Source: Myxococcota bacterium
Lineage (GTDB): Bacteria; Myxococcota_A; UBA9160; PR03
Direction: 5' to 3'
Length of the DNA stretch: 49,393 nt
Assembly: GCA_025453505.1 (NCBI GenBank)
Contig: JALOQG010000001.1
Coordinates: 1-49,393 of the forward strand
Shown here: one piece after another, positions 1,704 through 34,479 of the stretch
Position numbering within the stretch: position 1 is the first letter of the stretch
Layout: every line of letters begins with the position of its first letter
Made by a program: the position numbers and the translations under genes
The notes under the pieces: model-generated
Seen by the model: only the letters and a program-made list of their open reading frames with translations
Databases searched by the model: none
What the model was told of the DNA's origin: nothing

Positions 1704-2294
<591 letters not shown>

Positions 2295-2303
2295 GGGCCC
2301 CGT

Positions 2304-2798
2304 CTAATCCGCGAACAGCTTGTCGATGTCGTCGTCGGTGATCTCGGCGAAGGGGCTGGTCGCGCCGTTGCGCGCCCGTTCGCTCTTCTTCTGGATCTCC
2401 TCGAACACGCGTGCGAGCTCGGCGCCGGCCTTCTTGACGCGCAGGCGCACGAGGCCGAGCGAGGAGCGCTCGTCGAAGATCACGACCAGGATGATGCGCT
2501 TGGCCACCACGGTCATGTGGAGGTTGTCGCGCTGCCCCTGGTGGAAATGGATCGGGAACTCTTCCTCGCCGATGATCTTGGCGAGGCCGCCGGTCGCGGC
2601 GATGCAGCCGGCCGTGAGCGAGGCGAGGCTGGTCGTGTCCAGGCCGCGCAGATCGCCGGCTTCGGCCATCAGCTGGCCGTTCTTGTCCACGACGAACACG
2701 CCCTTCGAGTGCGCGTCGCGCGCCAGGCGCTCGCAGACGCCGAGGACTTTTCGATAGTCCTCGTCGAAGAGCACGAGCTGGGTGTCGACGAACGGCAT
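2304..2798 (-). CDS. mglB: Roadblock/LC7-domain protein MglB (GAP of MglA)
   Basis: 164 aa, immediately upstream of mglA on the same strand with a 9-nt gap. Roadblock/LC7-like core (VFVVDKNGQLMAEAGD...SLASLTAGCIAATGGLAK) and an acidic C-terminal tail. Confidence 0.9.
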   Translation of the reverse strand: MPFVDTQLVLFDEDYRKVLGVCERLARDAHSKGVFVVDKNGQLMAEAGDLRGLDTTSLASLTAGCIAATGGLAKIIGEEEFPIHFHQGQRDNLHMTVVAKRIILVVIFDERSSLGLVRLRVKKAGAELARVFEEIQKKSERARNGATSPFAEITDDDIDKLFAD

Positions 2799-6470: not shown

Positions 6471-7688
6471 GTGGCGCCGGCAGTCGATCGATCCGGTGAA
6501 GTGCTCGCGTCCCTCGCGACGCGCCTCGCGCGTGCGGGGGCGAACCTCACCGTCGAGCGGACCGATGCGCCGCCGCTCGCGATCGGCGCGCATCCCGGCC
6601 GCGCGCGCGTCGTGTTCCGCGACGCCGCGGCGCTCGCGCCGCTGCTGCGCGGTGATCACCTCGGGCTCGCCGAGGCGTATCTGCACGGGCGCATCGATCT
6701 CGCCGGCGATCTCGCGGAGATCGTGAAGGTCACCGACGTCCTCGCCATCGACGAGTCGCCCTGGGACCGCGTGCGCGTCGCGCTCGGCCTGCTGCTGCGC
6801 GGCCGCCGCGCGCTGAACCGCGACGCCATCTCCTTCCATTACGACCGCCCGCCCGACTTCTTCTTGCCGTGGCTCGAACGCTGGCGCTCGTACTCGCACG
6901 GCTTCTGGTCGGCGCCCGACGACGATCCCGCCGACGCCCAGGCCCGCAAGCTGCAGTTCGCGATCGATGCGCTCGATCTGCGTCCGGGCGACCGCGTGCT
7001 CGACATGGGGGCCGGATGGGGCTCGTTCGTCGAGTACGCGGGCCTGCAAGGCATTCGCGTGCACGGCATCACGATCTCGCGCGAGCAGCACCGCTTCGTC
7101 GAAACGCTGATCCGCGAGCGCGGGCTGCCCTGCACGGTCGAGTTCGTCGACTTCTTCCAGTACCGGCCGCGCGAGCGCTTCGCCGGCGCCGTCTTCCTCG
7201 GCACGCTCGAGCACGTGGTCGACTACGCGTACGCCGCGCGCTTCCTGGCGGAGCACCTCGCGCCCGGCGGCCGCGTCTACGCGGACTTCGTCGCGCGTTG
7301 CGCGGGCTTCCGCACCGGCCGCTTCCTCTCGCGCTGGATCTGGCCGGGCACGACGAGCTACGTCGATCTCGCAGCGCTCGTCCGCGCGCTCGGCGACGCC
7401 GGCTTCCACCTGCACGCGCTCGGCGACGACGGACTCTCGTACGCATGGACGGTGCGCGACTGGGCGCGGCGGCTCGAGCTGCACCGCAAGACGCTGGCCG
7501 AGCGTTTCGGCGAGCCCGCGGTGCGCGCGTTCCTGCTCTATCTCTGGGGCTCGTTCCATTTCCTCGAACGGGGACACACGCTCGCGTATCACCTCGTCGC
7601 CGCGCGCGAGCCGCGTCGCGCGGCTCCCCACGCGAGGACGGTCGCCACGACGCAAGCGAACGCGAACGCGTCGCCGACGCGTCCGTAG
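6471..7688 (+). CDS. Cyclopropane-fatty-acyl-phospholipid synthase family SAM-dependent methyltransferase
   Basis: 405 aa, GTG start. ISFHYDRPPDFF, SAM-binding LDMGAGWGSF, GITISREQ, AVFLGTLEHV and the C-terminal LYLWGSFHFLERG match the CFA/mycolic acid synthase layout. Confidence 0.85.
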   Translation: MAPAVDRSGEVLASLATRLARAGANLTVERTDAPPLAIGAHPGRARVVFRDAAALAPLLRGDHLGLAEAYLHGRIDLAGDLAEIVKVTDVLAIDESPWDRVRVALGLLLRGRRALNRDAISFHYDRPPDFFLPWLERWRSYSHGFWSAPDDDPADAQARKLQFAIDALDLRPGDRVLDMGAGWGSFVEYAGLQGIRVHGITISREQHRFVETLIRERGLPCTVEFVDFFQYRPRERFAGAVFLGTLEHVVDYAYAARFLAEHLAPGGRVYADFVARCAGFRTGRFLSRWIWPGTTSYVDLAALVRALGDAGFHLHALGDDGLSYAWTVRDWARRLELHRKTLAERFGEPAVRAFLLYLWGSFHFLERGHTLAYHLVAAREPRRAAPHARTVATTQANANASPTRP

Positions 7689-9148
7689 AACGAGCGGTCC
7701 GCGCGCGGCTCGATCCAGCCCGTCTCGACGGCGCGCTCGAAGGGCGTCGTGCGGACCTGCACGCGGCCCCACGGATCGACGATCGCGGAGGGACCCGAGG
7801 TGGACGCACGCACCAGCCAGCGGCGCTGCTCCACTGCGCGCAGCCGCACGATGTCGAAGAGGTGATCGGCGAAGCGGCGACTCGGAATCCAGGTGTCGTT
7901 CGACGGATTGAGCAGGAACTCCGCTCCTTCCGCGACGCGGCGGCCCGCCATCTCGGGCAGCATGGCCTCGTTGCAGAGCAGCACGCCGGCGCGTCCGGCG
8001 CGCGTCGCGAGGGGCGGCGTCGGCGCGCCGAACGAGAAGAAGCGAACGTCCGCGAAGCGCCGCCGCACGAAGTCGAACGCGCCGAGCGGCGGATACTCGG
8101 CGAAGGGCACCAGCGCCTGCTTGTCGTACGCGGCCGGCCGGCGCCCGCTCGCATCGACCACGAAGACGCTGTTGAAGAAGCGGAACGACGGCTCGTCACC
8201 TTCCCTGCGCGGCCCGCCGACGGCGATCTCGCCGCCTCCGCCGGCGGCCAGGCTGGCGATCGACGTCTCGTACTCCGGCTCCCGTTCGAGGAAGAAGGTG
8301 AGGGCGCTCTCCGGCCACGCGACGAGCGCGCCGGGCGCGCGGCGGAACGCCTCGACCGTTCCGTCGAAGTAGGCCTGGTACTCCGCCGCGTCGGACCGCC
8401 AGCGCCGCTCGAGGTTCACGTGACCCTGCACGACCGCGACGGGTCGCGCGTCCGCCACTGGAACGCCCGGCGGCGGTGCGTCGCGCAGCGTCCAGACGCC
8501 GAAGGCGAACAGCGCCGCGGCCGGCGCGACGCCCGCCGCGAGCAGCCCGGACAAGTGCGTGCGCGCGCGACCCTGCCGAGCGAGCGCGACGGCCTCGGCG
8601 AGCGCGGCGTTCGCGGCGACGATCGCAAAGCCGATCCCATGGACACCGAAGAGAGACGCCGCCTGCACGGCGACGTCGAGGCCCACCTGGGAATAACCGA
8701 GCAGGCCCCACGGATTCGACAGGAACGCGACCGCCGTGAAGAGGCGCCCGCGTCCCACTTCGGCGGCGGTCCACGCCGCAGCGGTGGCCCACGGCATCCA
8801 GCGCGGATCGAGGCGTTCCGCGAGCCCGCGGTACACGGCCGCGAACGCCATGTAGTAGAGCCCGGCCATTCCCGTCGAGATGCCGAAGAAGAAGAGCCAT
8901 CCGACCCAGCGCGGCTGGAGGAAATAGGTGGCGACCGCGTCCGGCATCCAGCTTCCGACCGTCCACGCGGCGAGCAGCGTCCAGACTTCGCCGAGCACGA
9001 GCGCGCGTGCGAGACCGGCGCCGCGCAGCGCGAGCAGGAAGGGCACGAGCGCGATCCAGGCGAGCGGCTTCACGCTCGCGGGCGGGAAGGCGAGCCCGAA
9101 GGCGATCGCCGACCCGGCGGTCGCCGCGATGCGCACGGGCCCCGTCAC
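7589..9148 (-). CDS. lnt: Apolipoprotein N-acyltransferase
   Basis: 519 aa, the C-terminal part of the 1735-aa track ORF. Multi-TM N-terminus (LAWIALVPFLLAL...), then a CN-hydrolase domain with VAWPESAL, YDKQALVPFAEY and GVLLCNEAM (catalytic Glu/Lys/Cys context). The GTG at 9148-9146 overlaps the cyclase stop (GTGA). Confidence 0.92.
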   Translation of the reverse strand: MTGPVRIAATAGSAIAFGLAFPPASVKPLAWIALVPFLLALRGAGLARALVLGEVWTLLAAWTVGSWMPDAVATYFLQPRWVGWLFFFGISTGMAGLYYMAFAAVYRGLAERLDPRWMPWATAAAWTAAEVGRGRLFTAVAFLSNPWGLLGYSQVGLDVAVQAASLFGVHGIGFAIVAANAALAEAVALARQGRARTHLSGLLAAGVAPAAALFAFGVWTLRDAPPPGVPVADARPVAVVQGHVNLERRWRSDAAEYQAYFDGTVEAFRRAPGALVAWPESALTFFLEREPEYETSIASLAAGGGGEIAVGGPRREGDEPSFRFFNSVFVVDASGRRPAAYDKQALVPFAEYPPLGAFDFVRRRFADVRFFSFGAPTPPLATRAGRAGVLLCNEAMLPEMAGRRVAEGAEFLLNPSNDTWIPSRRFADHLFDIVRLRAVEQRRWLVRASTSGPSAIVDPWGRVQVRTTPFERAVETGWIEPRADRSFYGRVGDAFAFACVVATVLAWGAARRGSRAATR

Positions 9149-12100
9149 GTGCGGTCGCAGAGCGCTGCGGCGACGTCGCGTTCGGCGGCGAGGCCGAGCG
9201 CGGCGAATCCGTCGCGGGCGGCGGCGAGCAGGGCGACGGCGGAGTCGTTCGTTGCCGCGAGCCGGCGGCCCATCTCGAGCCGGGTGCGCGCGAGCTCGGG
9301 CCGCATGCCCAGCGATCCAGCGACGTCGAGACTCTCGTTCCAGCGTCGCTGGGCGGTGTCGTGGCGGCCGACGATCCATGCTTCCGTGCCTGCACTCCGC
9401 AACACCTCGGGCCGCCGCCACGCCACGCGCGTCGCGAGTCGCAGGGCGGCGCTCCGGCTGCGCGCGGCGTTGCGCCGCTCGCGGCGTCCCGCGCCGGGTT
9501 CCTCGAGACGCGCGACGTCGAGGATCTGTCGCGCACGCAGCAAGTCGCAGGCGTGGTACGGCAGCAGGCGCCCGGCTCCCTGCAGCCGCTGCTCGCCGCG
9601 CGCGAGGCTCGCACGTGCACCCTCGGCGTCGCCGGCCAGCCACTGCGCCACCGCGCGGTGTCCGAGCGCCGAGACCTGGAACGCAGGCTCGGCGTGCTCG
9701 TCGAGATACTCGTCGAGCGCGGCGATCGCGCCGCCGAGATCCCGGCGTTCGAGCCGCGTCATCGCGACCAGGAATCGCTGCGCAGACGCCGCGAGGTCGT
9801 AGCGATACTGGTCGGCGATCTTCGCGAGCCGCTCGGCGCAGGTCGCGGCGGCGTCCCAATCGCCGCGGTAGAGGCGGCGCAGGCCGTCGAGGTTGAGCGA
9901 GTTGGTCACCTCCCAGAGGCGGCCGTAGCGGAGCCCGTCCTCGAGCAGCGCTTCGTCGGCGACGTGGGCGTCGCTCCAATGCCCGGCCAGCACGTGGTGG
10001 AGCTGGCTCATCATCCGGTAGTGGACGCGATCGCGGACGTCGTCGTCGCGCACGAGCCGGCGCGCGCGCGCGAGGAAGCGCCGCCCGATCGCGAACGACA
10101 CGCCGCCGTACGAGAAGATCCCGACCGCGCCCGCATACATCGCGCCGGCGCCCGGAACCGTCGAAGGATCGACACGCCCGAGTCGCGCGAGCGTCGCGAC
10201 CGAATCGAACACGAAGCGCGTCGGCGACGCGGTCGTCTGCGTCTGCGCGCGCTCGTACATGATCGCGATGATCTCGCGGTCCACGTCGCGTGCCGGTCGC
10301 GCGGCCATGCGCCCGGGCGACACGAGCTGCGCGAGCACCGCGAGGGCGTCGCGCGCGAACGCCGCGACCAGGCGCCCGTTGCTGCGCGGCACCCGCACGC
10401 CGAGATGTTCGAGCGCCTGCTGGTAGTGCTCGTCCGCCTCGAGCAGGCGCCCGCGGTGGAAGAGTGCGAGCGCGACGTGATGCGCGAGGCGCGCCTTCCT
10501 GGCGGGGTCGCCGCCCGCGCCGTGTCGCGCGAGGTAGAGCTTCGAAGCCTCCTGGAAGAAGTGGAGCGCCTCGCTCGACGCCGCGACGCGCGCGGCGTCC
10601 TCGCCGGCGCGGAACAGGAACTCCTCGGCGCGCGTGGCGTCGCCGCCCTTTCCGTAGTGCCACGCCAACATGCCCGCGCGGCCGGGCACGGTATCGGGGA
10701 GGCGTTCCTCGATCGCCCTCGCCACCGAACGGTGGAGCTCCTCGCGCCGCGTCTCGAGCAGTCCGTCGTAGACGACCTCGTGCAGGAGCGGATGCGCGAA
10801 CGCCCACTCGACGCCGCTGCTGCGATCCCACGGCACGAGGAACTCGGCCTCCGCGAGGCGGAGCAGGTCCTCGGCGACACGCGTCGCTTCGCCGAGCACG
10901 CCGACGAGCACGGCTTCGTGGAAGCTGCGTCCGATCACCGACGCGAGCTGGAGCAGGCTGCGCCGCTGCGCCGGCAGCCGGTCCACGCGCGCCATCACTA
11001 CGCCGTGCAGCGTGTCCGGGATCGTGACCTCGTGGATGCGGTCGGTGGCGCGGAAGCGGCCGTCCGGATCGTGCTCGACGGCGCCTGCGTCGACGAGCGC
11101 GCGCACGACCTCCTCGAGGAAGAACGGATTGCCCTGCGCCCGGTCCTCGATCGTCGCGCGCGTGGCGTGCGGCAGCGCATCGGTCGCGAACAGGTTCGCG
11201 AGCAGCTCGCGCGCCGCGCCGCGCGGCAGCGGCTCGAGACGCACCACCAGCAGATCGACGCCGGCGGCGCGCGCCGATGCTTCCGCGCGGTCCGCCGTCG
11301 CCGTGTGACCGGGCCGCGCGACGAACGCGAAGAGGATCGCGTGCTCGCGCGCGAGCGGCAGCAACGCCGCGAGCAGCTCGATCGACGACTCGTCGGCCCA
11401 GTGCAGGTCGTCCATCACGAAGACGACGGGCCGGTCGCTCGCGGCGCCGCGCAGCAGCTGGCCGATCGTGCGGTGCAGCAGCTTCTCGCGCGCATCGCCC
11501 GCGATGCGTTCGATGCGCGCGCGCTGCGGGGCATCGAGGCGCAGGCCGACGAGGTTGGCGAGCAGTGGCGCTGCATCCTGCGCTTCGCCGGGCAGCCAGC
11601 GGCCGGCGAGCGCGTCGAGCTTCGCGCGCGCCGCGCCCTCGTCGTCGGCGTCGCCGATGCCCGCCCAGCCGCGCAGCAGGTCTGCGAAAGGGTGGAAGCG
11701 CAGGCTGCGGCCGGTCGAGAGCGAGCGTCCCTCGAGCCACGTGAGCGACGCCGCCTCGGGGCTCGCGGCCAGCTCCGCGACGAGCCGCGACTTGCCGAGT
11801 CCCGCTTCGGCTTGCAGCGCGACGGCGCCGCCGTGACCGCCGGCGAGTGCGACGAGCCGCTCGCGCAGCGTCGCGAGTTCGCTGCCGCGGCCGACCAGCG
11901 GCGAGAACACGCGGCGTCCGCGGCCGGCGCGCTCCCGGTGCCGCTGCACGCGATCGGAGCGCAGCTCGAACGCGGCGATGGGCGCGTCGTGTCCGGCGAG
12001 CGTGAGCGGGGCGAGCGGCGCGAACTCGAAGACGCCGCGCACGAGCCGCTCGGTGTCGGCGCCGACGAAGATCTGTCCGGCCTCGGCCCAGTCGGTGAGC

Positions 12101-13848
12101 TGCGAGGCGACGTCGACGGGATCGCCCATCACGGCGAACTCGCGCAGCAGCGGACCGCTGACGTCGCCGGCGATGCCGAGCCCGGTGTGGATGCCCGCGT
12201 GCACGGAGAGCGGCGGCTCGATGCCCCGCTCGGCGTTGTAGGCGCGCACCCGCTCGCGCATCTCGATCGCCGCGTTGATCGCAGCGCGCGGCGCGTCCTC
12301 GATCGCCTCGGGCACGCCGAAGGTCGCCATCACGCAGTCGCCGAGATGCTTCTCGACGTGCCCGCCGTGATCGCGTGCGATGCCGTCGAGCAGATCGAGA
12401 CAGCCGGCGACGACCGGGTAGGCCGCCTCCGCGCCGAGCCGCTCGGTCATCGCGGTGAAGCCGCTGATGTCGGCGAACAGGATCGTCGCGCGACGCCGTT
12501 CGGCGTCGGCAGAGCGGGCGGCGCGATCGGCCTGCGCGCGTTCGGTCGCGAGCGCCGGCGCGAGGTGGACGCCGAGCACGAGACGTCCCGGGTGATCGCC
12601 GGCCCGTTCGAGGAGCAGCGCGCGCGCGTCCGGTGCGAGCGCGGCGTCCGGTGCGAGTGCGTCGACCAGACGCTCGGCGTCGGCTCGGCCCAGTCGGCCG
12701 AGCCGGATCTCGCGGCAGCATTCGCCGAGCGCGCGCGCGCACACGGCCAACGGCGCGTCGCTCGTCTCGGCCGTCACGACGAAGAGCAGCGGGCACTGCG
12801 TCGCGAGCGCGAGCGCCGGCGCCAGCGCGGCGAACGATTCCGGGTCGAGTCGCTCGACGTCCTCGATCACGACGAGGAGCGGCCGGGCCCGGGCGGACGC
12901 GGAGAGAGCGGTCGCCACGGCGGCGGACAGCGAGGCGGGATCCGTCGTGTCGATCGAAGCGCCGCCGAGCGCCGCGACGAGATCACGGGCGGCGCTTCCG
13001 CGCGCGGCGTCCTCGGAGGCCGGATGCAGGACGACGACCGCGATGCCGGCCAGCGCGGGCTCGGTGGCGAGATCCGCGAGCAGCCGCGAACGCCCCGAAC
13101 CGTCTTCGCCGAGCAGCGCGATCGCTCCGCCGCGGCCGCCGGCGAGCGCACCGATCGCATCGGCGAGCGCCGCGCGTTCGGCGTCGCGGCCGATCAGGCG
13201 CGCGGCGGGCGGATCCTCCGGCGCGAGTGTGCGTACCGCGCGCGAGCCGCGTACGCCGATCAGCTCCGCCGCTGCGACCGTCCGCGATTTGCCCTCGAGC
13301 GCGAGCGCCTCGAGCGGCGTCCAAGCGAAGCGGTCGCCGGCCTCGCGCACGCTCGCCGCGTCCCCGCGGATCGCGTCGAGACGGGCGCGCGCCTTGAGGC
13401 GCGCCGCGACATTGACGGTGTCGCCGAGCACGTGGAACTCGCGAACGACGCGGCCGCCGACGTCGCCCGCGACGATCGCGCCGGTCGCGATGCCCCCCTG
13501 GAGCGCGAGACGCACCGGGAGCCCGAGCGCGCGGTCGTAGGCGCGCACCTGCCGGCGCATGTCGAGGACCGCCTCCGCCGCGGCGCGCGCCGGACGCGCG
13601 AGCGGTGCGGGATGTCCGAACACGACCATCAGGCTGTCGCCCTGGTACTTGTCGACCGCGCCGCCGTGGCGGCGCGCGATCGCATCGAGCAGACGCAGAC
13701 AGCCCGTCACCGCGAGGTACGCGCGCTCCGGGCCGACGGATTGCGACAACGCCGTGAAGCCCGCGACGCCGACGAAGACGATCGTGGCGTCGACCCGGCG
13801 TGCCGCCGGCGGCTCGGGTCGGTGGCCGTCGCGTGCGGGGACATCCAT
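9145..13848 (-). CDS. Multidomain signalling protein: class III cyclase domain 1, degenerate P-loop NTPase, class III cyclase domain 2, STAND/AAA ATPase, helical/TPR-like C-terminal region
   Basis: 1567 aa. CHD1 spans about aa 20-195 (IVFVGVAGFT, KYQGDSLMVVFG, GDTVNVAARL). NTPase-like 1 has GEDGSGRSRL. CHD2 spans about aa 452-630 (ILFADISGFT, KHLGDCVMATFG, GDPVDVASQL). NTPase 2 has Walker A AEAGLGKSRL and Walker B VVFVMDDLHWAD. A helical region of about 650 aa follows. Confidence 0.9.
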   Translation of the reverse strand: MDVPARDGHRPEPPAARRVDATIVFVGVAGFTALSQSVGPERAYLAVTGCLRLLDAIARRHGGAVDKYQGDSLMVVFGHPAPLARPARAAAEAVLDMRRQVRAYDRALGLPVRLALQGGIATGAIVAGDVGGRVVREFHVLGDTVNVAARLKARARLDAIRGDAASVREAGDRFAWTPLEALALEGKSRTVAAAELIGVRGSRAVRTLAPEDPPAARLIGRDAERAALADAIGALAGGRGGAIALLGEDGSGRSRLLADLATEPALAGIAVVVLHPASEDAARGSAARDLVAALGGASIDTTDPASLSAAVATALSASARARPLLVVIEDVERLDPESFAALAPALALATQCPLLFVVTAETSDAPLAVCARALGECCREIRLGRLGRADAERLVDALAPDAALAPDARALLLERAGDHPGRLVLGVHLAPALATERAQADRAARSADAERRRATILFADISGFTAMTERLGAEAAYPVVAGCLDLLDGIARDHGGHVEKHLGDCVMATFGVPEAIEDAPRAAINAAIEMRERVRAYNAERGIEPPLSVHAGIHTGLGIAGDVSGPLLREFAVMGDPVDVASQLTDWAEAGQIFVGADTERLVRGVFEFAPLAPLTLAGHDAPIAAFELRSDRVQRHRERAGRGRRVFSPLVGRGSELATLRERLVALAGGHGGAVALQAEAGLGKSRLVAELAASPEAASLTWLEGRSLSTGRSLRFHPFADLLRGWAGIGDADDEGAARAKLDALAGRWLPGEAQDAAPLLANLVGLRLDAPQRARIERIAGDAREKLLHRTIGQLLRGAASDRPVVFVMDDLHWADESSIELLAALLPLAREHAILFAFVARPGHTATADRAEASARAAGVDLLVVRLEPLPRGAARELLANLFATDALPHATRATIEDRAQGNPFFLEEVVRALVDAGAVEHDPDGRFRATDRIHEVTIPDTLHGVVMARVDRLPAQRRSLLQLASVIGRSFHEAVLVGVLGEATRVAEDLLRLAEAEFLVPWDRSSGVEWAFAHPLLHEVVYDGLLETRREELHRSVARAIEERLPDTVPGRAGMLAWHYGKGGDATRAEEFLFRAGEDAARVAASSEALHFFQEASKLYLARHGAGGDPARKARLAHHVALALFHRGRLLEADEHYQQALEHLGVRVPRSNGRLVAAFARDALAVLAQLVSPGRMAARPARDVDREIIAIMYERAQTQTTASPTRFVFDSVATLARLGRVDPSTVPGAGAMYAGAVGIFSYGGVSFAIGRRFLARARRLVRDDDVRDRVHYRMMSQLHHVLAGHWSDAHVADEALLEDGLRYGRLWEVTNSLNLDGLRRLYRGDWDAAATCAERLAKIADQYRYDLAASAQRFLVAMTRLERRDLGGAIAALDEYLDEHAEPAFQVSALGHRAVAQWLAGDAEGARASLARGEQRLQGAGRLLPYHACDLLRARQILDVARLEEPGAGRRERRNAARSRSAALRLATRVAWRRPEVLRSAGTEAWIVGRHDTAQRRWNESLDVAGSLGMRPELARTRLEMGRRLAATNDSAVALLAAARDGFAALGLAAERDVAAALCDRT

Positions 13849-14021
13849 GCGCGCGACAGGATATCGGCGTGAGACGGTGTCGCCGCGGCGGGTCGGCCCT
13901 GCAGCATGCGACGGGCGCGGATCGCGCGAGGCGTGCTAGTCGTTGCCGCCGCCGACCGGAGCCGCGTCGCACTCCGCGGCTCCCTCTCGGCTCCGGCCAT
14001 CCGCAACAGGAGAGGGCGCGC

Positions 14022-14849
14022 GTGCAGACCTTCGTCCTTCCCGGCTACCGCTCCCTGCGTCGCGTGGCGATCGGGCTGCTCTGTGCCGCAGCGCTCGGGG
14101 GCGCGTTCGCGCCCGAGGCGCGCGCGCAGGCGTCCGCCGAGGACGTCGAGCGCTGTCTGCGCCAGAACCTGCCGAAGCGGTCGAGCGTCCAGACGATGCG
14201 CTTCGACACGCGCGATCGCATGGGCAACACGCGCCGCATCGAGGGGAAGATCTTCTGGCGGCGCGGCGAGAGCGACGCGCACTCGAAGACGCTGGTCCGC
14301 ATCGAGGCCCCGCCCGAGCTGCGCGGATCGTCCTATCTGCTGCTCGAGAAGCCCGACGTGCTCGACATCTTCGTCTACCTGCCCGAGTTCCAGAAGGTGC
14401 GCCGCATCACGCCGCACGCGCTCGCGGGCTCGCTCTTCGGCACCGACTTCTCGTACGAGGACATGATGCGCCTGCGCCACGTCTTCGAGCGCCAGCGCGC
14501 CGAACGCCTCGCCGACGAGCGCGTCGGCGAGCGCGACGCGTTCGTCGTACAGCTCGTGCCGCCGCCGGAGTCGGGTTCGGCGTACGAGCGCGTCAAGGCG
14601 TGGGTCGATCAGAAGAGCTGCGTGCCGCTGCGCATGGAGTTCGTCGCGAAGGGCGGCTCGCTCGCCAAGGAACTCACCTCGGATCCCGCGACGTTTTCGC
14701 AGCGCGGCTCGATCTGGGTGGCGAGCGCCTTCGTGCTGCGCGACCTGCACGAGCAGACCGAGACCGCGCTCGAGCTCGGCGAGATCGAGGCGGACGTCGA
14801 CCTGCCCGACCGGCTCTTCAGCGAGCGGGCGCTCGCCCAGGGCAACTGA
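14022..14849 (+). CDS. Periplasmic LolA-like outer membrane lipoprotein-sorting family protein
   Basis: GTG at 14022 follows AGGAGAG (14008-14014). Signal peptide is RRVAIGLLCAAALGGAFAPEARAQ. The body (LLLEKPDVLDIFVYLPEFQKVRRI...GTDFSYEDM) resembles the LolA_like family that is usually encoded next to MMPL/RND exporters. Confidence 0.8.
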   Translation: MQTFVLPGYRSLRRVAIGLLCAAALGGAFAPEARAQASAEDVERCLRQNLPKRSSVQTMRFDTRDRMGNTRRIEGKIFWRRGESDAHSKTLVRIEAPPELRGSSYLLLEKPDVLDIFVYLPEFQKVRRITPHALAGSLFGTDFSYEDMMRLRHVFERQRAERLADERVGERDAFVVQLVPPPESGSAYERVKAWVDQKSCVPLRMEFVAKGGSLAKELTSDPATFSQRGSIWVASAFVLRDLHEQTETALELGEIEADVDLPDRLFSERALAQGN

Positions 14850-17485
14850 TTCGGCTGCTGGCGGGCATCGCGTCGCGACCGGGCCGGGTGCTCGCCGTCG
14901 CCGCGCTGGTCACGGCGGGCGCGCTCGCCGGGCTCGTCGATCTGCGCACCGGCGCGGTGCGGCTGAGCGTCGATCCCTCGGCCGTGCACCTGCTCCCCGC
15001 CACCGGCCCGGAGCGCGATCAATACGAGCGCGCCCGCCAGCTCTTCGGCGCCGAGGAGCCGTTCGTCGTCGCGCTCGCGGCCGACGACGTGTTCCGTCCC
15101 GACGTCCTGCGCCGCGTCGCGACGCTGAGTGCGGAGCTCGCGGCGCTGCCCGAGATCCACCACGTCGTGTCGCTCGCGACGGCGCCCGACGTGATCGCGA
15201 GCGAGAACGGCGACATCGAGCTGCGTCCGATCCTCGACGCGATTCCCGAGCGTCCCGAGGAGCTCGCGGCGCTGCGCGCGCGCACGCTCGGCAATCCGCT
15301 CTACCGCGGCACGCTGGTCGCCGACGACGCTCGCACCGTGGCGCTCTTCGCGTACCCGGATCGGCTCTCGTCGCGCGATCTGCTGGCCAGCGGCGTCGCC
15401 GATCGCGTCGAGGTCGCCGCGCGCGCGCACGCCGGAGCCGGCGTCGAGGTGTTCGTCAGCGGCATTCCGTTCGCGACCGCGAAGCTCTCCGACCTGCTGC
15501 TGCGCGAGCTGCGCACGCTGTTGCCGCTCACCGTGCTCGTGCTCTGCGTCGTGCTCGCCTTCGCGTTCCGATCGGTGCTCGGCGTCGTGCTGCCGATCAC
15601 GTCGGTGTCGCTCGCGCTCGTGTGGACGCTCGGCGTGATGGCCTGGACGGGCCGCTCGCTGAACCTCGTGACGGCGATCCTGCCTCCGCTCGTCGTCACG
15701 GTCGGCCTCGCGTACGCGATGCACGTCGTCGCGGATTTCGGCGCGCGGCTCGCCGAAATTCCCCGCGATCGCGCGGGGCGCATGCAGCTCGCCGGCGAAG
15801 TGGTCGGCGAGATCGGCGTCTCGGTGCTGCTGGCGGGCATGACCACGCTCGCGGGCTTCCTCTCGCTCGCGCTCTCGCCGATCGCGGCGATCCGCGAGCT
15901 CGCGCTCTTCGCGGTGCTCGGCGTCGCGTTCGCGGTCGTGTCGGCGATCACGGTCACGCCCGCGCTGCTCGCGGTACTGCCCGGCACCCCGGTGCGCGCG
16001 CCGCGCGGCGGCGATTGGCTGGGACGCAAGGCCGGCTCGCTCGCGGACTTCGCGGTGCGCCGCCGCGCTCTCATCGTGTCGGTGGCGGCCCTCGCGGTCG
16101 CTTTCGGTGCGTGGGGCGCACGCCGCATCGAGACGGCGACCGAGTTCGTCGGCAACCTCGATCGCAGCACGCAGATGCGCGCCGACTACGAGGCGATCAA
16201 CGCGCGGCTCGGCGGCGCCAACCTGATCCAGATCGCGATCGATTCGCCGCTGGAGCAGGCGTTTCTCGAGCCGGCGAACCTGCGCGTGCTCACCGAGCTG
16301 ACGCAATGGCTCGGCGCGCAACCGGAGATCGGCGGCGCGGTGTCGCTGGCCGACTACGTGGCGCTGGTGAATCACGCCATGTCGGACGGCGATCCCGCGG
16401 CGCTGCGTGTGCCCGACACGAAGCGCGCCGTCGGTCAGCTCCTGCTCTTCGGCGCCAGCGACGAGACCGAACGCCTGACCGACGCGCGCTATCAGACCGC
16501 GAACGTCGTGGTGCGTGCCAGCGTCGGCGACTCACGCGGCGTGGCGGCGCTGGTCGATTGCATCGAGACGCGGCTCGCCGCGCTGCCCGAGCCCCTGCAC
16601 GCGACGGTGACGGGCAACGTCGTGCTCTTCGGCAAGAGCCTCGACGACCTCGCCGGCGGCCAGTGGGCGAGCCTCGGCGCCGCCTTCCTGATGATCTACG
16701 CGTGTCTCGCCGCGCTCTTCACCTCGCTCCTCGTCGGTTCGATCGCGCTCGGCATCGCCGCCGACGACACGATCCACACCATGGCGCGCTTCAACACCGA
16801 GGCGCGCCGGCTCGGCGACGAGCGGCGCGCGATCGACGCGGCCCTGCGCGGCGTGATCCGGCCGATCACGTTCACGCTCGTGGGACTCTGCCTCGGCTTC
16901 TCGGTGCTCGGATTCTCCGAGCTGCGTTCGCAAGCGGAGTTCGGCCTGCTCGCGGCCGCGACGCTGGCGGTCGGCTGGGTGGTGGACATGACGCTGACGC
17001 CGGCGCTCTGCGCGGGCGTGCGCGTGGTGACGCTGTGGGACGTGCTGACGCTCGATCTCGGCGCCGATCCCGCGCGCGAGATCCCGCTCTTCGCCGGCAT
17101 GAGCCGCCAGCAGATGCGGATCTTCGTGCTGCTCGCGTCGCCGCGTACGCTCGCCGCCGGCGAGCTGCTCTTCCGCGAGGGCGATCCGGCGCGGCACGGA
17201 TACCTGGTCCTGGAAGGACGCCTCGAGACGTCGGTGGACCGCGACGGCGAACGCATCGTGCTCGAGCCGATCGAACGCGGGGACACCACGGGCGAGATCG
17301 GCCTTTTCGCGATGCGGCGCAGCGCCGACGTGCGCGCGCTCGCGCCGACGCGGCTGGTGCGCTTCGACGGCGAAGATCTCGAGCGGCTGCGGCTCCGCTC
17401 GCCGCGCACCGCCGCGCTGCTGTATCGCAACCTGAACCGGATCCAGTCCGAGCGCCAGCTCGTGACCAGCGTCCGGGTGCGCTGA
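14846..17485 (+). CDS. MMPL/RND-superfamily exporter (COG1033-type) fused to a C-terminal cyclic-nucleotide-binding domain
   Basis: Two-lobed RND layout. The first bundle has FRSVLGVVLPITSVSLALVWTLGVMAWTGRSLNLVTAILPPLVVTVGLAYAMH and the second has IALGIAADDTIH. The C-terminus (about 17078-17470) has a CAP-type cNMP domain (LFAGMS..., GEIGLFAMRRSADVRA). The start is uncertain: no ATG/GTG/TTG precedes the conserved N-terminus. Candidates are CTG at 14846 (overlapping the upstream TGA) or GTG at 14888. Confidence 0.85.
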   Translation: MIRLLAGIASRPGRVLAVAALVTAGALAGLVDLRTGAVRLSVDPSAVHLLPATGPERDQYERARQLFGAEEPFVVALAADDVFRPDVLRRVATLSAELAALPEIHHVVSLATAPDVIASENGDIELRPILDAIPERPEELAALRARTLGNPLYRGTLVADDARTVALFAYPDRLSSRDLLASGVADRVEVAARAHAGAGVEVFVSGIPFATAKLSDLLLRELRTLLPLTVLVLCVVLAFAFRSVLGVVLPITSVSLALVWTLGVMAWTGRSLNLVTAILPPLVVTVGLAYAMHVVADFGARLAEIPRDRAGRMQLAGEVVGEIGVSVLLAGMTTLAGFLSLALSPIAAIRELALFAVLGVAFAVVSAITVTPALLAVLPGTPVRAPRGGDWLGRKAGSLADFAVRRRALIVSVAALAVAFGAWGARRIETATEFVGNLDRSTQMRADYEAINARLGGANLIQIAIDSPLEQAFLEPANLRVLTELTQWLGAQPEIGGAVSLADYVALVNHAMSDGDPAALRVPDTKRAVGQLLLFGASDETERLTDARYQTANVVVRASVGDSRGVAALVDCIETRLAALPEPLHATVTGNVVLFGKSLDDLAGGQWASLGAAFLMIYACLAALFTSLLVGSIALGIAADDTIHTMARFNTEARRLGDERRAIDAALRGVIRPITFTLVGLCLGFSVLGFSELRSQAEFGLLAAATLAVGWVVDMTLTPALCAGVRVVTLWDVLTLDLGADPAREIPLFAGMSRQQMRIFVLLASPRTLAAGELLFREGDPARHGYLVLEGRLETSVDRDGERIVLEPIERGDTTGEIGLFAMRRSADVRALAPTRLVRFDGEDLERLRLRSPRTAALLYRNLNRIQSERQLVTSVRVR

Positions 17486-17486
17486 G

Positions 17487-20400
17487 ATGGCGCGACTCGT
17501 CGACGTGCGCGCCGACGAGCGCGAGCGCTTCGGCTGGTTCGCCGCGCTGGCGGCGCTGCTCGCGTTCGGACAGATGCTGGGCCAGGCCGGCACCGAGTCG
17601 CTCTTCCTCGCGCGGCTCGGTGCGGAACGCCTGCCCGAGGCGTTCGTATTCGCGTCGATCTCGACGGTGGCGGCGTCGCTCCTCTACGCGATGCGCGTCG
17701 GGCACGCGCGCAACGACCGCGTCGCCGTCGAGCTGCTGGGGCTCGCCGTCGTCGCGATCGGCGCCGGCGCCTTCGCGCTGCGGCAGGGCTCGGAGATCGC
17801 GCTCGTCGCGCTCTTCTGTCTCTTCTTCGCGACGCAGGCGGTGCTGATCGGTCACTTCTGGACGCTGCTCGGCGACTTCTTCGACACGCTGGCGGCCAAG
17901 CGCGTGGTGCCCCTCTGTACCGTGGGACTCTCGTTCGGCGGCGCCCTCGGCGGCGGAGCGGCGCTCGGCGTCGTGTCGACGTTGCCGGCGGAGATGTTGC
18001 TGGTCGGCTGGGCGCTGGGTCTCGTGGCCGCGGCGGTGCTGGTCGCGACCTCGCACGGCCGGCTCGCGCGGTGGCGCGCCGTCTCGCAGGGCGAGGAGGA
18101 CGAGACGTCGGTCGAGGGGCTGCGCGCCGCCGTGCGCTACCTGCGCGGCTCGCGGCTCGGCCGCCGGCTCTTCGTATCGGCGCTGACGATGGTGCTCGCG
18201 CTCTTCGTCGCGCAGTACCTCTACTCCGCGCGGATCGCGGCGGCGTTTCCGGACGAAGCGGAGCTGGCGCGCTTTCTCGCGATCTACCTGATGGTGAGCA
18301 ACGCCGTCGAGATCGGGGTCGAACTCTTTGTGACGCCTTTCGCCATCCGGCGCCTCGGCGTTCCCGCGGCGAACCTGATCCAGCCGCTCGCGACGCTCGC
18401 GACCTTCGTCGGACTCGGCTTCGCGCCGGGGCTGCCGGTGGCGGTGCTGGCGCGCGCCAACCGCGAGCTGCTGGACAACGCGCTCGCCGCGCCCGTGCGC
18501 ACGCTCGCGGCGAACGCGCTGCCCGATCGCTTCCGCGCCCGCGTGCGCGCCTTCCTCGAAGGCATCGTGGTGTATGCGGGCATGTCGCTCGCCGGCGTCG
18601 TCCTGCTGCTCGCGCGCGATCTCCCCGCCGAATCGCTGGTGCTCGCCGGTGCGGCGCTCGCCGGGCTGCATTTCCTCGCGAATCTCGGCGTGCGACGGCA
18701 GTACGTCGCGGCGATCGTCGGCGAGCTGCGGGCCGGTCGCTTCGACTGGCACGCGCTCGGCGACGAGATCGGCGCGCACGAGGTCGAGTCGCTGGCCGCG
18801 CTCTGGGAGCGCCTGGTCCGCGAGACGCCCGGCGATCCGGGACCCGCGCTGCTCGATCTGCCTCCGCTGCTCGTGCGCCACGGTCTCACGGCGCCGGTCC
18901 GCACGGCACTCGGACATCCGAGCCCGGCGCTGCGCGCGGCGTGTCTCGCGGCGCTCGCGGCTGCGCCCGAGGCGCAGGCGGATCCGGCGTTCTGGTTGCG
19001 CGTACTCGGCGACTCCGACGCAGACGTGCGTCGCGCGGCGCTGCGCCTGCTGCCCGACGCGCTGCTGGCCGGACCCGAGGTCCACGGCGCGCTGCGCGCG
19101 CTGCGCGACGACGCGGACCCGCGCGTGCGCGCCGCCGCCGCGCGCCGCCTCGGCGCCGAGGGCGAGCCGCTCTTCGCCGCGTTGCTGGCGTCGCCGGACA
19201 CCGGGAACGTCGCAGCGGCGCTCGAGTCGCTGCCGCCGGCGCTCGCCGGTGCGGCGGTCGCGCGGCTCGCGGATCCGGATGCGCGCCTGCGCGCGGCGGC
19301 GCTCGACGCGCTCGCGCGCGGTGGCGCGGAAGCGTCGCTCCAACCGCTCGCGACCTCGCGCCTCGCCGATCCGGACGCGCGCGTGCGGCGCGCGGCGGTT
19401 CGCGCCGTGGCCGGTACGGGTGCAGACGCGGCGGCGATCGCGCCGGCGCTTCGCGACCCCGCCCGCGAGGTGCGCAGCGAAGCGGTGCGCGCACTGGTGG
19501 AGCAGGGGGATCGCGGCGCCGTCGCGGCGCGTCCCTTGCTCGACGCGGGCGAGGAGTTCGCGGTGGGCGCGGCGTTGCGCGTGCTCGGCGCGGTGGGCTC
19601 GCCGTGGGCGGTCGCTTCGTTGCGCGAGCACTACGCGGCGCGCGTGCGCGAGGCCGTGCAGGCGTTCCTGTGCGCTCGCGTGTTCGCGACGACCGACGGC
19701 GTGCCCGTCTTCGTCGCGGCGGCCGGCAGCGACGCCCTCGCGCGCGCGCTGCGTCTCGCATGGCGTTCGCTGGCGCGGATCGAGGACGAGCGCGTCGTGC
19801 GCAGTGCCGAGCGTTCGCTGCGCGGCGCCACCGGCCGCATGCGCGCGGACGCGCTCGAAGTGCTCTCGCAGCTCGGAGACCGCGAGGCCTCGCAGCGCCT
19901 CGTGCTGCTGCTCGAGCCGATGCCCGTCGAAGAGAAGATCGAGGCGCTGCGTTCGTGGGGGCGTGTGCCGCGCGATGCGGCCGAAGCCATGACGCATGCC
20001 GCGGCGCTGTCGTCACCATGGATCCGGCTCGCGGTGCGCCGCCGGACGGATGCCGAGGAGATCCAGATGGAACGCCTGCTCTCGCTGCGCCAGGTCTCGT
20101 TGTTCGCGCACATGAGCCTCGAACGCCTGCACGCGGTCGAGCGCATCCTGCGCGACGCCGAGTACGTGCAGGGCGAGGTGATCCTGCGCGAACACGAGCC
20201 CGGCGACGACCTGTACCTGCTGGTCGAAGGCCACGTCGACGTGCTGCGCGGCGCGGGCACGCCGGGCGAGATGCTGCTCAACCGGCTCGGGCCGGGCGCC
20301 TACTTCGGCGAGATGGCCGTCCTCGACGGCACGCCGCGCAGCGCGACGATCGTCGCGGCGGGACCGGTGCGCGTGCTGGTGCTCGAAGGGGAGCGCCTGC

Positions 20401-20504
20401 GCGAACTCGTGCACGAGATGCCCGAGCTGGCGTTCGATCTGCTGCGCGTGCTGGCGGAGCGGGTGCGGAGGGCGGAGGAGCGGCTGGCGGCCGGGGAGTC
20501 GTGA
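17487..20504 (+). CDS. TLC/ATP-ADP-translocase-like MFS-type permease fused to HEAT repeats and a C-terminal cyclic-nucleotide-binding domain
   Basis: 1005 aa; the ATG is 1 nt after the upstream stop. The N-terminal polytopic domain has HFWTLLGDFFDTLAAKRVVPLCTVGLSFGGALGG (TLC-family FW...AKR motif). The central part has repeated ADPDARVRRAA-type HEAT units. The C-terminal CNB domain has LFAHMS..., FGEMAVLDGTPRSATIVA. Confidence 0.85.
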   Translation: MARLVDVRADERERFGWFAALAALLAFGQMLGQAGTESLFLARLGAERLPEAFVFASISTVAASLLYAMRVGHARNDRVAVELLGLAVVAIGAGAFALRQGSEIALVALFCLFFATQAVLIGHFWTLLGDFFDTLAAKRVVPLCTVGLSFGGALGGGAALGVVSTLPAEMLLVGWALGLVAAAVLVATSHGRLARWRAVSQGEEDETSVEGLRAAVRYLRGSRLGRRLFVSALTMVLALFVAQYLYSARIAAAFPDEAELARFLAIYLMVSNAVEIGVELFVTPFAIRRLGVPAANLIQPLATLATFVGLGFAPGLPVAVLARANRELLDNALAAPVRTLAANALPDRFRARVRAFLEGIVVYAGMSLAGVVLLLARDLPAESLVLAGAALAGLHFLANLGVRRQYVAAIVGELRAGRFDWHALGDEIGAHEVESLAALWERLVRETPGDPGPALLDLPPLLVRHGLTAPVRTALGHPSPALRAACLAALAAAPEAQADPAFWLRVLGDSDADVRRAALRLLPDALLAGPEVHGALRALRDDADPRVRAAAARRLGAEGEPLFAALLASPDTGNVAAALESLPPALAGAAVARLADPDARLRAAALDALARGGAEASLQPLATSRLADPDARVRRAAVRAVAGTGADAAAIAPALRDPAREVRSEAVRALVEQGDRGAVAARPLLDAGEEFAVGAALRVLGAVGSPWAVASLREHYAARVREAVQAFLCARVFATTDGVPVFVAAAGSDALARALRLAWRSLARIEDERVVRSAERSLRGATGRMRADALEVLSQLGDREASQRLVLLLEPMPVEEKIEALRSWGRVPRDAAEAMTHAAALSSPWIRLAVRRRTDAEEIQMERLLSLRQVSLFAHMSLERLHAVERILRDAEYVQGEVILREHEPGDDLYLLVEGHVDVLRGAGTPGEMLLNRLGPGAYFGEMAVLDGTPRSATIVAAGPVRVLVLEGERLRELVHEMPELAFDLLRVLAERVRRAEERLAAGES

Positions 20505-27267: not shown

Positions 27268-27636
27268 ATGATCGCGCTACCCGCTTCCGACGCCGAGTTC
27301 GTCCTGCTCCACAACCCGCGCTGCTCGAAGTCGCGCGCCGCGCGGGCGCTGCTCGAAGAGCGCGGCGTCGCGGTGCGCGAGCGCTCGTATCTCGAGGATC
27401 CCCTGACACTCGCCGAGCTGCGCGATCTCGCCGCGCGTCTCGGCGAGCCGCCGTCGCGCTGGCTGCGCCGCGGCGAGGCGGCGTTTCACGAAGCGGGACT
27501 CTCTCCGGACGCAGACGACGCCGCGATCCTCGCCGCGATGGCGGACCACCCGATCCTGATCGAGCGGCCGATCCTCGTGCGCGGCGCGCGTGCGGTCGTC
27601 GGACGTCCGCCGGAGCGCGTGCTCGAGCTGCTCTGA
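27268..27636 (+). CDS. arsC: ArsC/Spx-family arsenate reductase-like protein
   Basis: 122 aa. LLHNPRCSKSRAARALLEERG (active-site Cys context) and HPILIERPILV at the C-terminus. Confidence 0.88.
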   Translation: MIALPASDAEFVLLHNPRCSKSRAARALLEERGVAVRERSYLEDPLTLAELRDLAARLGEPPSRWLRRGEAAFHEAGLSPDADDAAILAAMADHPILIERPILVRGARAVVGRPPERVLELL

Positions 27637-27718
27637 GCGCAAGCGACCCTGCAACCGCTTGCTCGCGCCCGAGGCGGAGCGCAACATCGCGCGAGCGCGC
27701 GCCCCGGAGCCCCAGACC

Positions 27719-34323: not shown

Positions 34324-34479
34324 CGGGGCTCCAGGGGGACGGGCGGCCTTCTCCGGCCGCAGCCACCCCGACCGTAGAGGATGGCAACGGCACTGCAATG
34401 CGCGGGCGCGGAGCAGGTCGTAGTCTCGCGACGCGCGTTGCTTCAGCGCGGCGCATGTTCCGTCGATACGACAGGCGTG

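Follow-up and report, generated by a model that had tools for sequence, protein, structure and literature searches.

Cytoplasmic C-terminal cyclic-nucleotide-binding (CNB) domains, joined through a conserved linker to a membrane transport domain, occur in the MloK1, SthK, CNG and HCN channels, in the SLC9C1 Na+/H+ exchanger and in PycTM of the Pycsar systems. The membrane domains in these cases are channels, a CPA1 exchanger and small pore-forming effectors, not transporters of the resistance-nodulation-division (RND) or nucleotide transporter (NTT) type, and our literature searches found no RND or NTT transporter reported to be under CNB control. Here we analysed a contig of 49,393 bp (the window, meaning the whole of this stretch; ~72% G+C) from a metagenome-assembled genome (MAG) of a Myxococcota bacterium, in which the same domain design, and the same pairing of a cyclase with CNB membrane proteins, is seen with transporters of these two types. 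A 1567-aa tandem class III nucleotidyl cyclase of the STAND (signal transduction ATPases with numerous domains) type (9145..13848, minus strand) lies divergent from three plus-strand genes, which encode a LolA-like periplasmic protein (PF17131/TP_0789-like; 14022..14849), an MmpL/HAE3-type RND transporter with a C-terminal CNB domain (gene 3; 14846..17485, start uncertain) and a 1005-aa NTT-like permease-HEAT-cNBD protein (gene 4; 17487..20504). What appears to be new is a CNB-fused MmpL-like family that is repeatedly linked to sensor cyclases; the family of gene 4 is already known, and the three-way module of the cyclase with both transporters is lineage-restricted. We read the locus as a cyclic nucleoside monophosphate (cNMP) signalling module attached to envelope-lipid genes, and direct gating of the transporters by cNMP is the best-supported explanation, which we hold to be slightly more probable than not.

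The closest described relatives of gene 3 are MmpL3, MmpL4, MmpL5 and HpnN (TC 2.A.6, HAE2/HAE3), which share with it two MMPL halves, the closest predicted fold, and conserved membrane-embedded acidic and His residues. Gene 3 differs from them in that sequence identity is only 14–16%, its score falls far under the NCBIfam HAE3 cut-off, no solved or characterised member has a C-terminal CNB domain, and the window copy is without transmembrane (TM) helix 9. Its partner is LolA-like, whereas the partners of MmpL-type transporters are MmpS or AcpM. A LolA-fold protein paired or fused with an HAE3/MMPL transporter, as here, is known from AmeABCD, TOL_3187 and aryl-polyene export genes. AmeABCD of Castellaniella is a monoterpene tolerance system with LolA-like/DUF1329 and HAE3 components (PMC6394551), and in TOL_3187 of Thalassolituus, which is induced 42-fold on n-C28 alkane, the LolA-like and MMPL parts are fused (PMC6304351). 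Systems of this type are linked to hydrophobic substrates such as monoterpenes and long-chain alkanes. Unlike these systems, the window has neither a DUF1302 outer-membrane protein nor a Ycf48-like AmeC, and no CNB domain or cyclase has been reported for them.

The NTT-HEAT-cNBD family was described by Major, Embley & Williams in 2017 as monophyletic, widespread (including in Deltaproteobacteria) and uncharacterised, and its authors speculated on cAMP tuning ATP uptake (PMC5381601). Gene 4 shares the three-part architecture and the length class of this family. The original prediction knew of no characterised nucleotide-transporter-like permease gated through a CNB domain; the architecture as such is not new, having been described in 2017. 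The passages of that paper drawn on here do not mention a cyclase, an RND transporter or lnt as linked genes.

Reading frames in the window were assessed by G+C content at third codon positions and by profile searches of Pfam and NCBIfam. These recovered most of the domains that had been proposed from the sequence, namely those of the cyclase, lnt, the LolA-like protein, the MMPL and CNB parts of gene 3, and the HEAT and CNB parts of gene 4. The central proposal, that both transporters end in cNMP-binding domains with intact cassettes, was borne out. PF00027 matched both C-termini (71.4 and 73.9 bits against a gathering cut-off of 27.5), at residues 767-849 of the RND transporter (17144..17392, plus strand; E=6.1e-20) and residues 892-976 of the permease (20160..20414, plus strand; E=1e-20). 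The phosphate-binding cassettes, GEIGLFAMRRSA and GEMAVLDGTPRSA, lie exactly where they had been placed, at 17291-17338 and 20304-20357, and both contain Gly-Glu and Arg-(Ser/Thr)-Ala. Conservation of the RND cassette across 64 sequences was 1.0 for G816, 0.95 for E817, 0.94 for R825 and 0.92 for A827, and in the permease G941, E942, A944 and R951 were invariant in 25 sequences. The two CNB domains are only 29% identical, which rules out a recent duplication of one into the other.

Pfam MMPL (PF03176) matched gene 3 in two halves (E=5e-27), and the best-scoring NCBIfam family was TIGR00921 (HAE3), at 138 bits against a cut-off of 351.9. A sequence search of solved structures with the RND part gave only weak matches to TM segments. 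An AlphaFold2 (AF2) model (pLDDT 88.3, pTM 0.79) was compared with solved structures by Foldseek and was closest to MmpL4 (9b43, E=6e-22, TM-score on the target (TMt) 0.74), followed by MmpL5, MmpL3 and HpnN (5khn, E=2e-17). NPC1 and Patched matched further down, and HAE1 multidrug pumps only at ~0.4. The MMPL-CNB fusion is carried by ~80 protein clusters, down to 31% identity. When one genome per GTDB species was scanned with a pattern, relatives turned up in at least 578 species genomes. The best 80 loci were analysed, and in every one of them the match extends to query residues 864-879 and so takes in the C-terminal CNB region. Cultured members of the Nevskiales and Salinisphaerales are among these 80 (Hydrocarboniphaga effusa, Fontimonas, Panacagrimonas, Sinimarinibacterium, Stenotrophobium and Spectribacter).

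Over stretches of 20 residues, conservation in the RND family is highest in the linker between TM12 and the CNB domain (residues 720-739; 17003..17062, plus strand; mean top-residue frequency 0.81), followed by the membrane DDTxH helix (0.79) and the C-terminal helix of the CNB domain (0.75). This pattern would fit a CNB domain that is mechanically coupled to the transport domain. Literature searches found no paper describing an MMPL-CNB fusion, nor, in the library searched, one naming both MMPL and cyclic nucleotide-binding, and nothing relevant among surveys of CNB domain architectures or work on Nevskiales. As far as we found, then, MMPL-CNB is a widespread LolA-partnered MmpL-like family, present in at least 578 species, that the literature has not described.

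The LolA-like gene lies directly 5' of the RND gene in 66/80 loci. Its product matched LolA_like (E=1.1e-42) and DUF1329 as its only Pfam families and no family in an NCBIfam search, and its nearest solved structures were 3bk5, 4z48, 9tp6 and 3buu. The protein has a Sec signal peptide (cleavage ARA|Q) and is without a lipobox. LolA proper, the chaperone of the Lol pathway, was ruled out by these Pfam matches and by a partner that is an RND transporter and not LolCDE. The lipoprotein export that had been proposed for this pair is not indicated, since the periplasmic partner is LolA-like (PF17131) and not LolA and the RND fold resembles MmpL/HpnN.

Gene neighbourhoods were compared next. The 80 genome loci were searched by tblastn with the proteins of the window, all open reading frames (ORFs) were clustered, and 10 kb was taken as the limit of adjacency; L-numbers below are labels of the surveyed genome loci. 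A class III cyclase lay within 10 kb of the LolA-like/MMPL-CNB genes in 32/80 loci; among the 38 whose flanks are complete, the count was 20. In 26/80 it was of the STAND type. In ~20 gammaproteobacterial loci a STAND cyclase is directly 5' of lolA and co-oriented with it. The two called ORFs are either separated by no more than ~125 nt (81 nt in L069) or overlap, by 4 nt in L033 and L066 and nominally by as much as 389 nt in loci where it is uncertain which start of lolA is right, the longest ORF having been taken. The order cyclase, lolA-like, mmpl-CNB in these genomes is consistent with a single operon. The distant deltaproteobacterial MAG L058 has the divergent cyclase/transporter layout of the window. 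Three loci (L024, L039 and L078) carry lolA-like, MMPL-CNB, NTT/MFS-HEAT, a stand-alone CNB protein and a 283-aa ORF, with a convergent CHASE2-cyclase, and in L035 a CHASE2-cyclase directly follows MMPL-CNB without NTT-HEAT. Three unrelated cyclase types are therefore found beside MMPL-CNB: tandem STAND, single STAND (Gln/Thr, see below) and CHASE2. As background, among ~70 generic metagenomic STAND-cyclase loci ~1 adjoins a LolA-like gene and ~5 adjoin any CNB protein. Because three cyclase types have been recruited independently beside MMPL-CNB, often in the same operon, a functional link between cyclase and transporter is indicated.

The expectation that the cyclase, CNB-RND and CNB-NTT genes would be conserved together held for the cyclase with CNB-RND, at the frequencies just given, and not for the three-way set, which is not general. 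An NTT-HEAT(-CNB) gene adjoins in 9/80 loci, and the three-way set is limited to the window, L005 (which keeps the window layout, at 72% identity), L086 and the L024/L039/L078 group. In L086 the cyclase is ~48% and the MMPL protein 71% identical to those of the window, and the cyclase, lnt (4-nt overlap with the cyclase), a fatty acid (FA) desaturase, lolA-like, MMPL and NTT-HEAT-cNBD are co-oriented. Cultured hosts with both the operon and the cyclase are found in Sinimarinibacterium, Stenotrophobium, Panacagrimonas and Spectribacter; Hydrocarboniphaga has the transporter pair without an adjacent cyclase.

In gene 4, HEAT_2/HEAT (HEAT_2 E=1.6e-16) and cNMP_binding (E=1e-20) were matched, and both were present in 25/25 relatives; more than 150 protein clusters share the architecture. 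The N-terminal half had been assigned to TLC (PF03219). For the window protein itself the match is sub-threshold (13.4 bits, where the cut-off is 21; E=0.034), and the assignment stands only at the level of the family: PF03219 was matched by 18/25 relatives, with a best E of 9.6e-10, and MFS_1 by 2. A search of solved structures with the sequence of this half gave no match even at E<=10. The split form of the family described in 2017, NTT-HEAT followed by a separate cNBD gene (PMC5381601), is also seen in L024, L039 and L078.

Pfam resolved the window cyclase, in order, into Guanylate_cyc (residues 20-162), AAA_16 (217-357), Guanylate_cyc (453-620), AAA_16 (650-834) and a C-terminal region. 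Guanylate_cyc (PF00211) was matched in two stretches (E=3e-34 overall, 3.7e-14 for domain 1 alone) and the second AAA_16 with E=2.5e-32. The STAND NTPase signature, an AAA_16-type NTPase followed by a region like tetratricopeptide repeats (TPR), was found with AAA_16 present twice and a weak TPR_12 match in the C-terminal half (8.6e-4). In calling this protein a tandem cyclase the original prediction was right about its two cyclase domains and understated its design, which is two cyclase-ATPase modules in tandem. The second AAA_16 and the long C-terminal helical/TPR region (9148..11901, minus strand) are presumed to be the sensor or oligomerisation part. The same full-length architecture occurs in more than 100 protein clusters. 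Membership of the TOMM_kin_cyc equivalog was ruled out, as the partial match (319 bits) is below the cut-off of 706.

Catalytic positions were anchored on CyaB (3r5g) and Cya2 (2w01) and are given here in the order first metal, first specificity, second metal, second specificity, Asn, Arg. Domain 1, which is 'C2-like' (residues 20-162; 13363..13791, minus strand), reads G-K-D-H-N-R; it keeps Lys, Asn and Arg and has Gly for the first metal Asp. Domain 2, which is 'C1-like' (residues 453-620; 11989..12492, minus strand), reads D-K-D-A-D-Q; it keeps both metal Asp residues and has Asp for the catalytic Asn and Gln for the Arg. The full six-residue set within one domain, as in homodimer-type cyclases, is absent from both. 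Across a pair of the C1:C2 type it is present, with the metal Asp residues from domain 2 and Lys, Asn and Arg from domain 1. The pattern extends to the tandem family. Of 108 proteins, all have the Asn in domain 1 and 106 have the Arg there, with Lys in 93 and His in 84 at the specificity positions; in domain 2 the two metal Asp residues are found in all 108, the Asn in only 10 and the Arg in 24. An AF2 model of residues 1-640 (pLDDT 91.6, pTM 0.90) best matched single-chain C1+C2 cyclases, namely the soluble domain of AC9 (TMt 0.71-0.73) and human soluble adenylyl cyclase (sAC; ~0.64). Each superposition spanned more than 630 aligned columns; a single domain could not yield these values. From the complementary loss of residues across the family and the superposition on the C1+C2 domains of AC9 and sAC, we conclude that the two domains are predicted to form an intramolecular C1:C2-like pseudo-heterodimer with one composite active site.

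This model resembles the mammalian membrane and soluble adenylyl cyclases, in which two complementarily degenerate class III domains form one site; full-length sAC also carries a P-loop NTPase/TPR-like C-terminal region. It differs from them in having the C2-like domain first and an AAA_16 NTPase between the domains, in being bacterial and without the membrane anchors of the mammalian membrane cyclases, and in its specificity pair (Lys/His, against Lys/Asp in the mammalian enzymes and Lys/Thr in sAC). Mycobacterial cyclase-ATPase-TPR(-LuxR) proteins of the Rv0386 type likewise combine a class III cyclase with an AAA_16/STAND NTPase and TPR, and have non-canonical substrate-specifying residues; they have one cyclase domain and a C-terminal helix-turn-helix (HTH) output. 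The window cyclase differs from these in its two cyclase-ATPase modules, in having no HTH, and in an output that is presumed to go to the CNB transporters.

The window pair Lys/His is neither of the canonical purine-specifying pairs (Lys/Asp for ATP; Glu/Cys for GTP), and the pair differs between systems: L086 has Lys/Pro, and the operons of Gammaproteobacteria have Gln/Thr. In the window, ATP is the substrate suggested by the Lys at the first of the two positions. The cyclase of L086, with one detectable cyclase domain, has a full catalytic residue set (D-K-D-P-N-R), and the cyclases of the gammaproteobacterial operons and L058 read D-Q-D-T-N-R. The Gln/Thr pair was shared by STAND cyclases linked to lolA/MMPL-CNB in Gammaproteobacteria and one deltaproteobacterial MAG (L015, L023, L027-L033, L040, L043, L046, L048, L049, L052, L054, L055, L057, L058, L063, L066, L067, L069, L072 and L083). 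Being of neither the ATP nor the GTP type, it leaves the product of those cyclases unpredictable; a non-canonical nucleotide might be made by cyclases with either Gln/Thr or Lys/His. Four Oceanococcus loci were seen to carry two tandem STAND-cyclase genes 5' of lolA (L015 2397-8884; L023 2465-8982; L028 2527-9014; L049 2502-9052), with 4-nt overlaps in 3/4. The lolA-proximal paralogue of these pairs has Gly in place of the catalytic Asn (D-Q-D-T-G-R), which hints that the pair may form an obligate heteromer from two separate genes.

From these data we propose a mechanism, in which gating, the binding and identity of the nucleotide, the sense of the regulation and the transported substrates are all inferred. 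The catalytic domains of the cyclase would fold together, with domain 2 supplying the two metal Asp residues and domain 1 the Lys/His pair, Asn and Arg, and the two NTPase modules and long TPR-like C-terminus presumably turn the enzyme on in response to a cue. Its product would most likely be cAMP, given the Lys at the purine-selecting position. The cNMP would be read by the cytoplasmic C-terminal CNB domains of the two neighbouring secondary transporters. One of these, the MmpL/HpnN-like RND protein, together with its soluble periplasmic LolA-like partner, probably extracts a hydrophobic molecule, such as a lipid, from the inner membrane; the second receiver would be the NTT-like permease with its arm of HEAT repeats. 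Ligand binding may be relayed to the membrane domain through the highly conserved linker, altering activity without new gene expression. In the lineage of the window, where the cyclase is predicted to be co-translated with lnt and lies beside a gene for a protein like cyclopropane fatty acid (CFA) synthase, the signal would be tied to lipoprotein and lipid remodelling. The wider proposal, that the MMPL-CNB family at large is gated directly by cNMP from a co-encoded sensor cyclase, and that in Myxococcota the same signal also controls NTT-HEAT-cNBD and is coupled to lipoprotein N-acylation and lipid cyclopropanation, we offer tentatively, as falling a little short of probable.

A number of our observations weigh against direct gating by a co-encoded cyclase. 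The first group concerns linkage, and lends itself to another reading: that two separate modules stand side by side, with the cyclase serving lnt and the CFA-synthase-like gene and its cNMP acting elsewhere (e.g., on a CRP-type regulator), and the CNB transporters reading a general cAMP pool. We consider this unlikely, and it is nonetheless the rival that survives best. On the minus strand, the cyclase is followed by lnt (apolipoprotein N-acyltransferase, 519 aa; 7589..9148; LNT_N E=9.4e-19, CN_hydrolase E=1.6e-22), and lnt is convergent with the CFA-synthase-like methyltransferase gene of the CMAS family (6471..7688, plus strand; PF02353, E=1.3e-36). The GTG start of lnt overlaps the TGA stop of the cyclase as GTGA, as read from the sequence, and the overlap is kept in the relatives L086, L088 and L089, in agreement with the translational coupling and envelope-lipid theme first proposed. 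The coupling of the cyclase to lnt and CMAS is kept from 78% to ~39% identity whether CNB transporters are nearby or not (L088, L089, L091, L092, L094 and L112). In L088 the cyclase is 76% identical and precedes lnt with a 4-nt overlap, CMAS adjoins, and NTT-HEAT-cNBD is divergent from the cyclase, without the RND pair. L089 has CMAS and a 61% identical cyclase that again overlaps lnt by 4 nt, with no CNB transporter within 10 kb, and L094 likewise has none near its cyclase. In L091, L092, L094 and L112 the cyclase is 39-49% identical and lnt is nearby in varying arrangements; CMAS adjoins cyclase-lnt in L088, L089, L091 and L094. The cyclase of this lineage is thus more constantly associated with lnt and CMAS than with the transporters.

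From the transporter side, 48 of the 80 MMPL-CNB loci show no cyclase within 10 kb, and many members must therefore read a distal or global cNMP pool. L085 (MMPL 87% and LolA-like 93% identical) keeps lolA-MMPL-NTT after the apparent loss of most of the cyclase and of the N-terminus of lnt: ~5 kb is deleted, and at 7261-8363 cyclase residues 11-99 are fused to lnt residues 192-519, in a contig that is a frameshift-rich, error-prone long-read assembly. The tandem cyclase is thus not strictly dedicated to the transporters, and the window lineage has two conserved modules, cyclase-lnt-CMAS and lolA-MMPL-CNB(-NTT), in juxtaposition. That the two have no functional connection is nevertheless hard to reconcile with the independent recruitment of three cyclase types beside MMPL-CNB, often in one operon. 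The background adjacency of generic STAND cyclases is very low, and L088 keeps NTT-HEAT-cNBD directly divergent from the cyclase even though its RND pair is absent.

The second group of opposing observations concerns the nucleotide and its receptor. With non-canonical specificity residues, the product of the cyclase can hardly be named with confidence. Compared with those of CAP and PKA, the RND cassette falls short by one or two residues. It is conceivable, and we think improbable, that the CNB domains are not cNMP receptors here at all and bind another ligand or none, with a dimerisation, docking or autoinhibitory role as in some CAP-family domains. The short RND cassette and the unusual cyclase residues would both suit such a role, as would the 29% identity of the two domains, which points to independent acquisitions and possibly to different ligands. 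Against it stand the Gly-Glu and Arg-Ser/Thr-Ala anchors, at least 92% conserved in the 64 sequences and invariant in the 25, and the recurrent genomic linkage to cyclases.

The weakest rival is a Pycsar-like anti-phage system, in which a STAND cyclase activated on infection would make a cyclic nucleotide that triggers CNB membrane effectors to collapse the membrane; it was rejected as very improbable. In its favour, both cyclase domains are recognised by PADLOC PycC models (best E=2e-29) and both CNB domains by PycTIR/effector models, and STAND NTPases are common in defence systems. These matches span only the shared cyclase and CNB folds. The would-be effectors are transporters of full size (12 TM), in which proton-relay-like motifs are conserved and to which a periplasmic protein is dedicated, and the chromosomal contexts are syntenic in Nevskiales and Salinisphaerales and housekeeping in the window. 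The typical Pycsar design, a defence island in which a compact PycC is paired with a small effector (CNB-TM or CNB-TIR), is not what the locus shows.

A last point against direct gating in this particular genome is the state of gene 3 itself. In an alignment of 64 members, the window copy has a 99-nt in-frame deletion (near 16727..16732, plus strand) that removes 33 aa and with them a conserved TM helix (TM9). The missing residues are present in 63/63 other aligned members, including relatives at 72-97% identity; they bear a PN...LNPxTS motif and lie directly before the DDTxH helix. The deletion is flanked by GTCGG microhomology, and its junction is the low-confidence spot (residues 627-633) of the AF2 model. 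Relatives have 12 TM helices and two large periplasmic loops; because the deletion takes out one helix, the window copy has 11. Lacking TM9, gene 3 of the window is probably inactivated and may be non-functional. The deletion is either a real defective allele or an assembly artefact (a collapse).

The start of gene 3 is also uncertain, because its homologues align from residue 1-3 and only a CTG is available there. A 4-nt overlap with lolA had been predicted from a start at 14846. The codon at that position is this CTG, not ATG, GTG or TTG, and there is no canonical in-frame start between 14771 and 14887; the predicted overlap does not stand on a canonical start. As a candidate start, CTG 14846 would give a CTGA overlap with the lolA stop. 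The NCBI start, GTG 14888, gives a 38-nt gap after lolA and would shorten TM1, and the homologues align from residue 1-3 despite it. The two genes are tightly packed under either start. At the other junction, the predicted 1-nt gap between gene 3 and gene 4 was seen as TGA-g-ATG. The divergent intergenic region (13849..14021, 173 bp) contains a GGAGAGG ribosome-binding site 5' of the lolA-like GTG. A scan of this region for a sigma-70 consensus found none, and neither did a scan for a terminator 3' of gene 4; both are uninformative at 72% G+C.

The transporter genes of the window are followed 3' by a hexapeptide transferase, fmt and EF-G, and the housekeeping genes around the module are dnaX, fmt, EF-G and lnt. 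A short-chain dehydrogenase/reductase (SDR) at 27590-28561 was set aside as a partner, being 7 kb off and of a generic family. Other recurrent neighbours found by ORF clustering were SDR, a GreB-like factor and ExbB/ExbD/TonB; the transporter loci are syntenic across Nevskiales and Salinisphaerales beside greB-like, SDR and exbBD/tonB, and these genes were set aside as clade synteny. Elsewhere, frequent neighbours with roles in lipid metabolism were an acyltransferase, a GDSL lipase, an FA desaturase, MaoC and luciferase-like monooxygenases. An acyl-CoA-synthetase-like ADP-forming pair (ATP-grasp_5 and CoA_binding_2/Succ_CoA_lig) was seen 3' of MMPL-CNB in two distant lineages (L002 12774-14902; L003/L004 14481-16609). 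At L002/L011 16801-22730, the gene after lnt encodes 1904 aa and has a match of the Ycf48/PSII_BNR-like type; in L002 it is not a cyclase. AmeC of AmeABCD is also Ycf48-like.

Two further arrangements were noted in the window. At 1704-2798 (minus strand) the gene for a small GTPase of the Arf/Ras-like kind lies next to one for a Roadblock/LC7 protein, as an MglA/MglB-like pair that adjoins an FMN reductase; the arrangement is syntenic in L085 and L088. At 32098-34566 (minus strand) an 822-aa ORF combines a COX15/CtaA (heme A synthase) domain with an NDH-2-type pyridine-nucleotide-disulphide oxidoreductase with NDH2_C.

MmpL/HpnN-type RND transporters build bacterial envelopes and are drug targets, and their acute regulation is almost unknown. 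If direct gating by cNMP is correct, the MMPL-CNB family would hold the first second-messenger-gated RND transporter and, in Myxococcota, a post-translational circuit for envelope remodelling. A transporter with its own cNMP sensor, its cognate cyclase in the same operon in many genomes and several cultured hosts in existence, would be a genetically compact system for the allosteric control of an RND pump. The tandem STAND cyclases would be a bacterial counterpart of the mammalian C1:C2 design with an unusual Lys/His pair. The locus would also give a first functional handle on the orphan NTT-HEAT-cNBD family, which reaches cyanobacteria, chlamydiae and oomycetes.

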